From the sequence record KP682377.1: a stretch of 62,708 nucleotides of DNA; one strand, 5' to 3'. The DNA comes from Escherichia phage PA16. Of this stretch, positions 9,001 to 12,000 are shown piece by piece. The position numbers were made by a program. Position 1 is the first letter of the stretch. Each line of letters begins with the position of its first letter.

Positions 9001-12000
9001 GCTGGTTTGCGTTTGCATTGTAAGACCACTCGTGATGGGGTTGGCCTGTGTAGTTTGTCGGAGCTAATCGCCTCCTGACTTTGCAGGTTTGCGCGACGAG
9101 CTCTACGGCGAGAAGCTGCGGTGCCTTTAAATTCTGTTTTTCTGGACATAGATTCCTCCCGAATAAACTTTGGCGATGCAATCTCGAAGCTCCTCCTGAG
9201 ACGGTTGCTTCGGCATTGCATCCCACAGCTTATGTGGTTGGGTGATCTGGCTTTTCAGCCACGTAGTCGAGAGTCGACGTTGTTTAAAGAGCCTGCCAGT
9301 CTGTTCCATTTGGCTTCCAGCGTCCTGCTGATGGTTAAATAGTACGATATGTACTTCACTTGGTCAATACAATTTGGTCTAAAACGGGGCGTTTTTTTAC
9401 AACGCTTTGTATTTAATAGTATTGTTTTTTAGCGTGGGTGTATTGCCTCGGCGATGTAAGGAGAGATCAGAATTGCGTTGTTTAGTGAGTTGTATCTATT
9501 TATTTTCCAATAAATACAATTGGTTATGTGTTTTTTTGGGCGAGAGGAAAAGAAAACCCGGCATGGAGGCCGGGTTGATGATTAGCGGTGTGGCCTTGAG
9601 CGATAATGCTCACACACATGTTCAAGATTTCCATGCCTTATCCGTTCATAGGCATTCACATGAACTTCTCGATCGAATTGGTCATTCAAATTGTATGTAG
9701 ACATCTGTGTTTTCTCATATTGGCGGCAGCCCTACAACCGCTTGAAAAAATGTACCAGACGCGCTAAGGTTACATCGCAAATATTGTGTACCTTAACAAG
9801 GGCTCCTTTTGGAGGCTCTGGTTAAACAGCATCAATGTCGGACTGGGGAGTTGGACATTGTGCTGAATGCTTTTGCATTATTGAGGCCGAACGTAAACCT
9901 TCAGAATTGAAGAGATGCGTTCGGCTTCTTCGTTTGTGATATCGTTAGGAATGCCTTTAATCGTTACTGTAACCCCTGATTCAGGTCGAAGAACTACTGG
10001 AAGATCATAGGTATGAAGTGCATTAGCCTTGCCTTCGACTTTTGTTGGTTCGCCAGTCAAATCTTTTTCCTCACTGGATTCTTTGTCAATCGGAGTGTAT
10101 GGGATTTCTTCACCAGACTGGAAAGCTACAAACTTTTTGATTGCACTTTCCATGCGGCTTTTATATGCAGTAATGCTGCTGTCGCTAGGCTTCGGCTCAG
10201 TTGCGTTGATGTATCGCTCGGCAAGCTCATTCACATCAAGCTGAGTAACATCACCCATTTCCTCTTCTTGGACTACCGTTAAGAGGCGAGCGGATGAGTT
10301 TTTTAAATTTCGAGCGGTGGCCTCCTTCATTATGTTCAGCGACATAAGCTCTTCAAGGAAGTCCTTGAATGCCTGCACGCTAACGTTTGACTTTGCCATT
10401 TGCTCTCTCTCTAAGTTATTGACTCAGATCGAGTTTATCCAGGAATTGATTTGCATGCAAGACTCAAGTCTTGAGAATTTCCGTTCAAGATCCACTCTCA
10501 ATAAAAAAGGCCGCACCTCTGCGACCTTTCATCTCCTAAATCTCTTTTCTCTTACCTAAAGAAACAGCAGGCTGGGTCAGCCCTAACAACTTCAAGTGCA
10601 TCGGTCAGAGAAAGCTCCGTGCTATACAGGTGTTATTTCATATCTTTTTGCATCCAATAAATTTTCCATCTGTCCAGAGAGCGGATGCACTTGATTCTTG
10701 TTGATGGCAGGACGTTTTTTCACCTGCCTCACCCTGCCATACAGGACGCTGCTCACCGATATCTATCGTCCGGTCATTGATGTTATAGACAATATCCAGA
10801 TCATTACGGATATACTCAGATGGCCTTATGCTTTCAATGAATAGATGAACTTCTTTTTGACCGCTTGATACTCATGGCCATTAAACTCCATCTATCCTCT
10901 TTACCCAAACGTCTCTTCAGGCCATTGGCTGGCGATAACTTTCCCCACAACGGAACAACTCTCATTGCATGGGATCATTGGATATTGCGGGTTTAGTGGT
11001 TGTAGAAACACCTGACCGCTATCCCTGATCAGTTTCTTGAAGGTAAATTCATCACCACCAAGTCTGGCTATGCAGAAATCGCCGGGCTCAACAGCTTGCT
11101 CAGGGTCAACCAGAATTAACATCCCGTCAGGAAAACTAGGTTTGGAACCTGTTGGTGCGGTCATTGAGTTACCTTCAACCTCAAGCCAGAATGCAGAGTC
11201 ACTGGCTTTTTTGGTTGTGCTTACCAATCTCTCCGCATCACCTTTGGTAAAGGTTCTGAGTTCTGGAGAGAACATCCCAGCCTGAACATGAGAAAAAACA
11301 GGGTACTCATATTGTTTTTTAACTGGGGCCGATGAGTATTCGCCAACAGGTGAAAATGTCCCGTCGTGGTTGAATGATATGTTATCAATACCAAGGTATT
11401 TAAACACCACACCAATATCACTAAGAGATGGATGACGAGATCCGCGCAACCAGTGTCCAATTCCACCCTGCGTCATACCTAGCTCTTCGGCTAACTTCTC
11501 TTGAGTTATGCCGAGCTCTTTCATTCTGGATCTAGCCAGTTCATACCATTTCATTTTCATGTCCTTATTATTACGCTCTGTACTGGAACCATCCATGCAC
11601 AATGTGTATTTTTACTTGTATTTGAGAAGTACATATTGTATTTTTTTATTCGTGGTTACTATGGAGGGCATATGAGCAACCTACGAAAATATCGAGAGTC
11701 ACTGAATATCTCTCAAACAACACTTGCTAAGGCAGTTGGATGCACACAGGGAGCTATCGGACATTGGGAATCTGGTCGTCGCTTCCCAGACCTTAAAACA
11801 TGCCGTGCTCTTGTTGCGTGTCTAAACAAGTTAGGCGCAAAAGTAAGTCTTGATGACGTGTTCCCGCCGGAGCACAAAGCCGCTTAATAAGCGGAGCCGC
11901 TCTTTGTAACAACGGACATTCGTCCTACGTCGCTGAAAAGCGAGTCCCAAGATATCTGACCAACTAAGGCCATATGCGTTTCCACGCATACCTTTCAACT

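Follow-up and report, generated by a model that had tools for sequence, protein, structure and literature searches.

Two lambdoid genetic switches serve as reference points for the immunity region described here. In phage lambda, the cI and cro genes are divergent, three 17-bp operators lie on each side, OR2 adjoins the -35 hexamer of the promoter PRM, OR3 lies over PRM, and the left (OL) and right (OR) operators are about 2.2 kb apart. Lambda CI activates PRM from the position adjoining the PRM -35, the lambda cI message is leaderless or nearly so, and the C-terminal domain of the repressor mediates cooperativity and octamerisation. The lambda operators have centre-to-centre spacings of 23 and 24 bp in OR and 24 and 20 bp in OL. 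Phage 933W, a Shiga toxin (Stx) 2a phage, also controls toxin release through a CI/Cro switch. It has only two OL sites and five operator sites, its repressor is described in a passage of the published work (PMC3317979) as binding adjacent sites without cooperativity, and it stands as an example of an Stx phage switch that departs from lambda; it has been footprinted, apparently unlike the VT2-Sakai immunity type that concerns us. We analysed the whole 62,708-bp record KP682377.1 of Escherichia phage PA16 (hereafter the window), with a focus on the operators that flank its cI gene. The locus shares with lambda the divergent genes, the three 17-bp operators on each side, the places of OR2 and OR3 relative to PRM and the distance between OL and OR, together with an almost identical C-terminal domain of CI; the spacings of its operators differ. 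We estimate a probability of about 0.88 that it is the lambda-type genetic switch of an Stx phage of VT2-Sakai immunity, with six putative operators for CI and Cro.

The phage itself is well represented in the databases. A megablast comparison with a phage collection identifies the window as an Stx2a phage of the PA4/VT2-Sakai type. Positions 9100-12000 are 100% identical to about 20 “PA” Stx2a phages of 62,708 bp (PA4, KP682372, and others), and to the Morioka V526 Stx1 (AP005153) and Stx2 II phages, and 99.9% identical to VT2-Sakai, Nil2, 2851 and 1717. VT2-Sakai differs from the window at two positions in 2,901 bp, 9377 (G in the window, T in Sakai) and 10930. The immunity region is the same DNA in VT2-Sakai (Sp5), Nil2, Stx2 II and the Stx1 phage (AP000422, AJ413274, AP005154, AP005153) and in PA4, and among the operators only the OL2 allele differs: five of the six agree with the published list, and at OL2 a single base is different.

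The operator set is already known: it has been annotated, and listed in published tables, for this same phage. The same six 17-mers are annotated as “putative operators” in AP000422 (VT2-Sakai) and AP005153 (the Stx1 phage), and the same sequences are tabulated in Table S1 of PMC10742460 and in Table S5 of PMC4587872. The latter paper, which published this phage (Yin et al. 2015), identified predicted OR1-3 and OL1-3 and listed them in that table. AP000422 further annotates pL, pR, PRM, nutL, nutR, a CII site and, at 9548-9576, a terminator of the PRM transcript. In Table S5 of PMC4587872 (Additional file 6) the sites on the N side are labelled “OR1-3” and those on the cro side “OL1-3,” which reverses both the VT2-Sakai GenBank annotation and the text of the paper itself. 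What the present analysis adds to the record is a corrected site at pR and comparative evidence that independently supports the six putative operators. The sites and promoters are listed below; all six operators are annotated in AP000422/AP005153, and the ranks are those among 62,692 positions of the window, obtained with a matrix built from other phages (see below).

9340..9356, no strand: OL1, TAGTACGATATGTACTT; rank 2; invariant in six E. coli variants
9365..9381, no strand: OL2, CAATACAATTTGGTCTA; rank 15; left half good, right half poor
9398..9414, no strand: OL3, TACAACGCTTTGTATTT; rank 7
11569..11585, no strand: OR3, TATTACGCTCTGTACTG; rank 8; a one-mismatch match to AGTAC-N5-GTACT
11595..11611, no strand: OR2, ATGCACAATGTGTATTT; rank 3
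11627..11643, no strand: OR1, AAGTACATATTGTATTT; rank 1
9339..9367, minus strand: pL, -35 TTGACC (9367-9362), 17-nt spacer, -10 TACTAT (9344-9339); promoter scan and AP000422 (“putative major leftward promoter”)
11616..11644, plus strand: pR, -35 TTGTAT (11616-11621), 17-nt spacer, -10 TATTTT (11639-11644); AP000422
11567..11595, minus strand: PRM, -35 TGGATG (11595-11590), 17-nt spacer, -10 AATAAT (11572-11567); AP000422

The three 17-bp sites on each side share the half-site (A/T)A(G/A)TAC and the core TAC-N5-GTA, and each occupies a distinct place relative to a promoter. OL1 lies over the -10 and spacer of pL, which reads leftward through nutL and N, and OL2 overlaps the pL -35 by 3 nt. OR1, which imperfectly repeats the geometry of OL1, occupies part of the pR spacer and reaches into the -10, while OR2 adjoins the PRM -35 and OR3 covers the PRM -10 and spacer. 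The centre-to-centre spacings are 26 and 32 bp in OR and 25 and 33 bp in OL, and the distance between OL and OR (from OL2 to OR2) is 2,230 bp. A simple promoter scan found pL, scored pR below its threshold and did not find PRM, and the placement of the last two is based on the GenBank annotation and on conservation. The positions of the pR hexamers are kept in natural variants (TTGCAT-17-TATTAT) and in phage epsilon34, whose annotated PR stands in the same relation to its OR1 as pR does here, and both PRM hexamers are invariant in a 10-sequence alignment (described below). Only 6 nt separate the end of the PRM -10 from the ATG at 11560, a spacing at which cI would probably be transcribed without a leader or with hardly any. 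The cI start codons given in GenBank and RefSeq records disagree (11554, 11560 or 11596).

An earlier note on this DNA had reported operator-like palindromes overlapping pL and pR, one clear palindrome per side, with arms that share the hexamer GTACTT/AAGTAC in arrangements too different for the half-site to be defined with certainty. Its general reading and its pL site agree with ours. The pL string AGTACGATATGTACT is present at 9341-9355 and overlaps the -10 of pL (TTGACC-17-TACTAT, 9367..9339, minus strand), and AGTACgatatGTACT (9341-9355, AGTAC-N5-GTACT) is the core of OL1. The pR string TACTTGTATTTGAGAAGTA is also present, at 11613-11631, with arms that are perfect over 5 bp, but it was mis-assigned as an operator. 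It had been placed in the pR spacer; it does cover the first 10 nt of the spacer, but also the -35 and two bases upstream. The right-side partner of the pL palindrome is instead AAGTACATATTGTATTT, i.e., OR1, because AGTAC-N5-GTACT matches there and because an independent repeat search pairs 9337-9357 with 11626-11646 (21 nt, 86% complementary). The arrangement of the half-sites, left uncertain before, resolves as TAC-N5-GTA within 17 bp, and with this definition there are three related sites per side rather than one; four of them (OL2, OL3, OR2 and OR3) had been missed.

Could the palindrome at pR nevertheless be a real operator? One could propose that there is a single operator on each side and that the one at pR is the everted TACTT-N9-AAGTA (11613-11631), with a half-site arrangement unlike that at pL. 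It is a perfect 5+5 inverted repeat, it uses the pentamer of OL1, and it lies over the pR -35 and spacer. Perfect repeats of this kind are common, however: the window contains 81 with a 5-nt spacer and another 81 with a 9-nt spacer, a density of about one per 774 bp for either class, and any 100 bp holds about 1.65 perfect inverted repeats with 5-bp arms and spacers of 0-12. Neither palindrome is therefore rare when taken alone. The right arm of the pR string, AAGTA, is the left half of OR1, and its left arm, TACTT (11613-11617), belongs to the DNA that separates OR2 from OR1 and extends into the pR -35. In seven of nine natural variants, mostly annotated with an identical Cro protein (WP_000067727.1), the left arm is changed at 11614 and 11615 (to TGCTT or TGTTT), and none of the 17-mers that start between 11605 and 11622 reaches -5 bits when scored with the family matrix. 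The order of the arms (GTACTT and then AAGTAC, with a 9-nt gap) is everted, the opposite of OL1; this arrangement recurs at no other site of the phage, pL included, and has no equivalent in the relatives, and one dimer could not read inverted and everted arrangements at different spacings. Since its left arm is unconserved, the 17-mers score low and the arrangement is everted, we reject the pR string as an operator and regard it as a by-product of the left half of OR1 and the adjoining spacer and -35 sequence. We consider the everted operator very improbable.

If single palindromes are ordinary, one may ask whether the whole set is an accident of AT-rich promoter DNA, with the true operators being other sequences or lying elsewhere. 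The frequency of such repeats speaks for such a view, as does a literature search that found no binding data for the cognate repressor. A search for the half-site finds AAGTAC/GTACTT 23 times in 62.7 kb, two of them in the two control regions. AGTAC-N5-GTACT with up to two mismatches has 18 matches in the whole window against 11.9 expected, which is not significant. With at most one mismatch it has five matches in 62.7 kb, of which three are at 9341, 11570 and 11628, and it is only at this stringency that the matches cluster in the control regions. The part that exceeds chance is the recurrence of one half-site, not either palindrome alone.

This recurrence was measured in two ways. In a leave-one-out test, a symmetric matrix derived from five of the sites was used to score the omitted sixth, and the six omitted sites ranked 1, 2, 7, 8, 12 and 17 of the 62,692 positions. 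A second, non-circular matrix was built from 19 TAC-N5-GTA sites in the immunity regions of five other phage groups (epsilon34/SPN9CC, ST64T, Klebsiella ST11-OXA48phi15.1, Erwinia Midgardsormr38 and Vibrio P2). With none of the six sites contributing to it, this matrix ranks them 1, 2, 3, 7, 8 and 15, and the chance that six of the top 15 positions fall in the two control regions, two stretches of approximately 90 bp, is about 3e-12. This result, the conservation of core and spacing in the five other groups despite unrelated intergenic DNA, and the covariation with the recognition helix described below all argue against a chance origin, which we regard as even less probable than the everted operator. 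Three further matrix matches, at 62039-62055, 43642-43658 and 17549-17565, occur away from the control regions and were taken as chance; the first falls inside an open reading frame (ORF) of 209 amino acids. There are also weak operator-like matches to the right of OL3, towards a 173-amino-acid ORF: AAATACAATTGGTTATG at 9512-9528 (11.3 bits) and TCATTCAAATTGTATGT at 9682-9698 (10.1 bits). They could be chance matches in AT-rich DNA or auxiliary sites.

We compared the control regions with those of more distant relatives. By tblastn, repressors with N-terminal domains 44-55% identical to that of the window are found in epsilon34/SPN9CC, ST64T/L, Klebsiella phi15.1, Midgardsormr38 and Vibrio P2. 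TAC-N5-GTA sites occur at the same relative positions across these phages, although the DNA between the sites is unrelated. Their spacings are 25-26 bp for OR3-OR2, 32-34 bp for OR2-OR1, 25 bp for OL1-OL2 and 30-33 bp for OL2-OL3. In Vibrio P2 the middle OR site was not detected, and the outer two are 58 bp apart, the same total. A site at the position equivalent to OR3 is present in seven phage groups. The N-terminal domain, the operator core and the three-site spacing all place the window in the TAC-N5-GTA operator group of L/ST64T, epsilon34 and their relatives, and the authors of the epsilon34 study independently proposed the operator consensus WTACRAWWTGTAT (PMC2629481). Phage mEp010, whose repressor is 40% identical, lacks TAC-N5-GTA upstream of cI; its specificity or its layout differs, and it was left out of the comparison.

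Within the half-site, T4, A5 and C6 are nearly invariant across the family, and position 2 follows the type of the recognition helix. It is A in 29 of 33 half-sites of phages whose recognition helix begins with Gln and in 3 of 18 where the first residue is Lys. In the lambda repressor-operator structure (1LMB), Gln44 contacts the adenine at position 2. Because the covariation of Gln with A2 fits this contact, a lambda-like docking of the repressor is a reasonable inference. The Salmonella, Klebsiella, Erwinia and Vibrio relatives, which share the core, the three-site layout and the spacing pattern with the window, differ from it in the outer half-site positions. This difference suggests that they are probably heteroimmune to the window, at least in part. 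Repressors of the L/ST64T and Klebsiella phi15.1 type do have the Gln-type helix, along with A-N-TAC half-sites. Lambda itself shares A2, A5 and C6 of its half-site TATCAC with AAGTAC here, and its recognition helix reads QSGVGAL (helix 3, GQSGVGALFNG) where that of the window reads QGGIGHW. The repressor and operators of 933W are unrelated in sequence to those described here.

The sites can also be followed among close relatives. The OR region is present in 776 of 5,426 complete E. coli genomes (approximately 14%), at 85-100% identity. We aligned 10 sequences (the window, phage phi458 and eight variants from genomes) and took positions 2-6 and 12-16 of each site as core operator columns. Substitutions affect 2 of the 30 core columns and 27 of the 81 other intergenic columns (Fisher p = 0.004; p = 0.055 when two columns that reflect gap placement in a run of T also count as variable). 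In OR2 only the central positions vary, apart from a change at position 2 in one genome. On the left side, among six variants, OL1 is invariant and OL3 has one substitution, while both spacers vary freely. The presumed OL region of phi458 (L007, 4480-4680) is not homologous and was not used. OL2 is the weakest of the six sites in the window. Its position 13 is 9377, where the window has G and VT2-Sakai and most O157 genomes have T; with the family matrix the T allele reaches 12.9 bits and the G allele 7.7. No complete E. coli genome matches the OL stretch at more than 99.4% identity, and the top-ranked genome inspected (TR01) has T at 9377. The polymorphism at 9377 is listed in Table S2 of Yin et al. 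2015 (PMC4587872), under the swapped label “OR2.”

The proteins encoded at the locus are those expected of a lambdoid switch. The gene order is bet, gam, kil, cIII, N, the 173-amino-acid ORF, cI, cro, cII and then O-like and DnaB-like genes. The genes nearest to the operators are as follows.

8877..9149, minus strand: N antiterminator, first gene of the pL operon; Pfam N_peptide (E = 2.3e-32) and GenBank annotation
9582..9704, minus strand: ORF of 40 amino acids, phrog_21154; in the rexAB position between cI and OL
9878..10399, minus strand: ORF of 173 amino acids, phrog_2602 (unknown function); in the rexAB position between cI and OL
10901..11560, minus strand: cI repressor, HTH_3 and Peptidase_S24 (Pfam); PDB 3bdn, E = 2.6e-96
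11672..11887, plus strand: cro, 71 amino acids, HTH_3 (Pfam)

The cI repressor is a clear mosaic. Its N-terminal domain aligns to the helix-turn-helix (HTH) of the lambda repressor (3bdn) with an E-value of 1.6e-4, and the C-terminal part, from EYPVFS onwards, differs from lambda CI at only two of the aligned residues. The identity to 3bdn extends through VQAGMF, EGNSM and FKKL, which contain the Ala-Gly site of cleavage and the Ser and Lys of the catalytic dyad. The HTH of Cro is a paralogue of the N-terminal HTH of CI (BLASTP E = 1e-12), and the recognition helices are nearly identical (TQGAIGHW in Cro, TQGGIGHW in CI); on the strength of this paralogy, Cro should read the same sites as CI. 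Cro here consists entirely of this HTH_3 paralogue of the repressor N-terminal domain, unlike lambda Cro. The sequence features of a lambdoid tripartite CI/Cro switch are thus found in the window: divergent cI (HTH plus S24) and cro flank a short control region (111 bp), OR1-3 of 17 bp each overlap pR and PRM, a second set of sites lies at pL upstream of N approximately 2 kb away, and the C-terminal domain of CI has the cleavage site and the Ser/Lys dyad. We conclude that the earlier observation concerns a genuine feature, an operator set of the lambda type.

How might the switch work? CI dimers, and Cro during lytic growth, would recognise the six 17-bp pseudo-palindromes, in each of which one base pair at the centre separates the two inverted halves. 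On the left, CI bound at OL1 and OL2, over the -10, spacer and -35 of pL and with OL3 upstream, would shut off N and the leftward operon. On the right, CI at OR1 and OR2, the latter between the -35 hexamers of pR and PRM, would repress cro and, by analogy with lambda, might stimulate PRM, while CI at OR3 would autorepress PRM. The lambda-like C-terminal domain would supply dimerisation, pairwise cooperativity and probably looping between OL and OR over 2.23 kb. RecA-stimulated self-cleavage of CI would then induce the phage and Stx2. The analysis itself shows the sites, their enrichment and conservation, their overlap with the promoters and the protein domains; actual binding, the order in which the sites fill, the activation of PRM, cooperativity and looping are inferred, the last two only from the lambda-identical C-terminal domain of CI.

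Several observations weigh against this account. The right half of OL2 is poor and G9377 costs it 5 bits, OR3 and OR2 are only moderate matches, and pR is a weak match to the promoter consensus that the simple scan missed. All annotations of the sites say “putative,” and the literature open to search yielded no footprint, electrophoretic mobility-shift assay or genetic operator mutant for the CI or Cro that belongs to these sites. The in vitro data are limited to lambda CI on VT2-Sa oligonucleotides, with apparent dissociation constants of 3.7-6.4 uM, whereas the same protein binds the six lambda sites at 0.2-3 uM; binding to the VT2-Sa oligonucleotides may be largely non-specific and says little about the cognate system. 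Finally, the OR1-OR2 spacing is 32 bp here and 24 bp in lambda, so lambda-style cooperativity between OR1 and OR2 is not guaranteed.

The last point leads to an alternative in which the operators are real and the wiring is not that of lambda: only some of the sites may be functional (OL2 with G9377, OL3 or OR3 being weak or unbound), or cooperativity may be absent or may join other pairs. The unequal spacings (25 and 33 bp in OL, 26 and 32 bp in OR), the weak OL2 of the window, and the precedent of 933W, with its five operator sites and, in the passage cited above (PMC3317979), no cooperativity between adjacent sites, would all fit such a scheme. Against it, the C-terminal domain of CI is nearly identical to that of lambda, the positions of OL3 and OR3 are conserved across the family, and OR3 falls exactly on the PRM -10. 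We regard this alternative as possible, though unlikely, and the lambda-type switch remains our preferred reading.

The close pair of OR sites in this family is OR2-OR3 and not OR1-OR2, and the unequal spacing (25-26 and 30-34 bp) is family-wide, as against 20-24 bp in lambda. It is tempting to speculate that this conserved spacing, combined with a lambda-identical cooperativity domain, reflects a switch wired differently from lambda, in which OL2 alleles such as G9377 tune pL, though we think this specific proposal doubtful. OR2-OR3 may, for example, act as the lambda-like pair, or cooperativity between OR1 and OR2 may operate across three helical turns.

A few other features of the region and of the window were noted in passing. 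No function for the ORFs between OL and cI was obtained from Pfam, PHROGs or PADLOC. The 173- and 40-amino-acid ORFs lie upstream of the annotated terminator of the PRM transcript (9548-9576), and they may be genes expressed in the lysogen. The stretch of approximately 500 bp from the cI stop to the 173-amino-acid ORF (10400-10900) is without a convincing ORF (43-48 amino acids only) and contains a perfect 11-nt inverted repeat (10592-10602 / 10684-10694). Elsewhere in the window, Rfam finds the lambda cIII thermoregulator (7898-7956), isrK, C4 and c4-a1b1 (17165-17363), three tRNAs (20612-20860), STnc100 (22269-22474), the anti-stx2 small RNA AsxR (22476-22528), the ALIL pseudoknot (25208-25324), sok (59416-59590) and sRNA-Xcc1 (62212-62300). 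An IS629 insertion at the ALIL pseudoknot was reported in the paper on this phage (PMC4587872).

The arrangement described here is a textbook one, annotated since the VT2-Sakai genome record. It belongs to a very common immunity type, carried by approximately 14% of complete E. coli genomes, that has apparently never been footprinted. The operators are medically relevant, as occupancy by CI would keep the Stx2a prophage silent and its loss would release Shiga toxin. If the wiring does differ from that of lambda, natural OL2 alleles like G9377 could tune the repression of pL and hence the inducibility of Stx2 phages.

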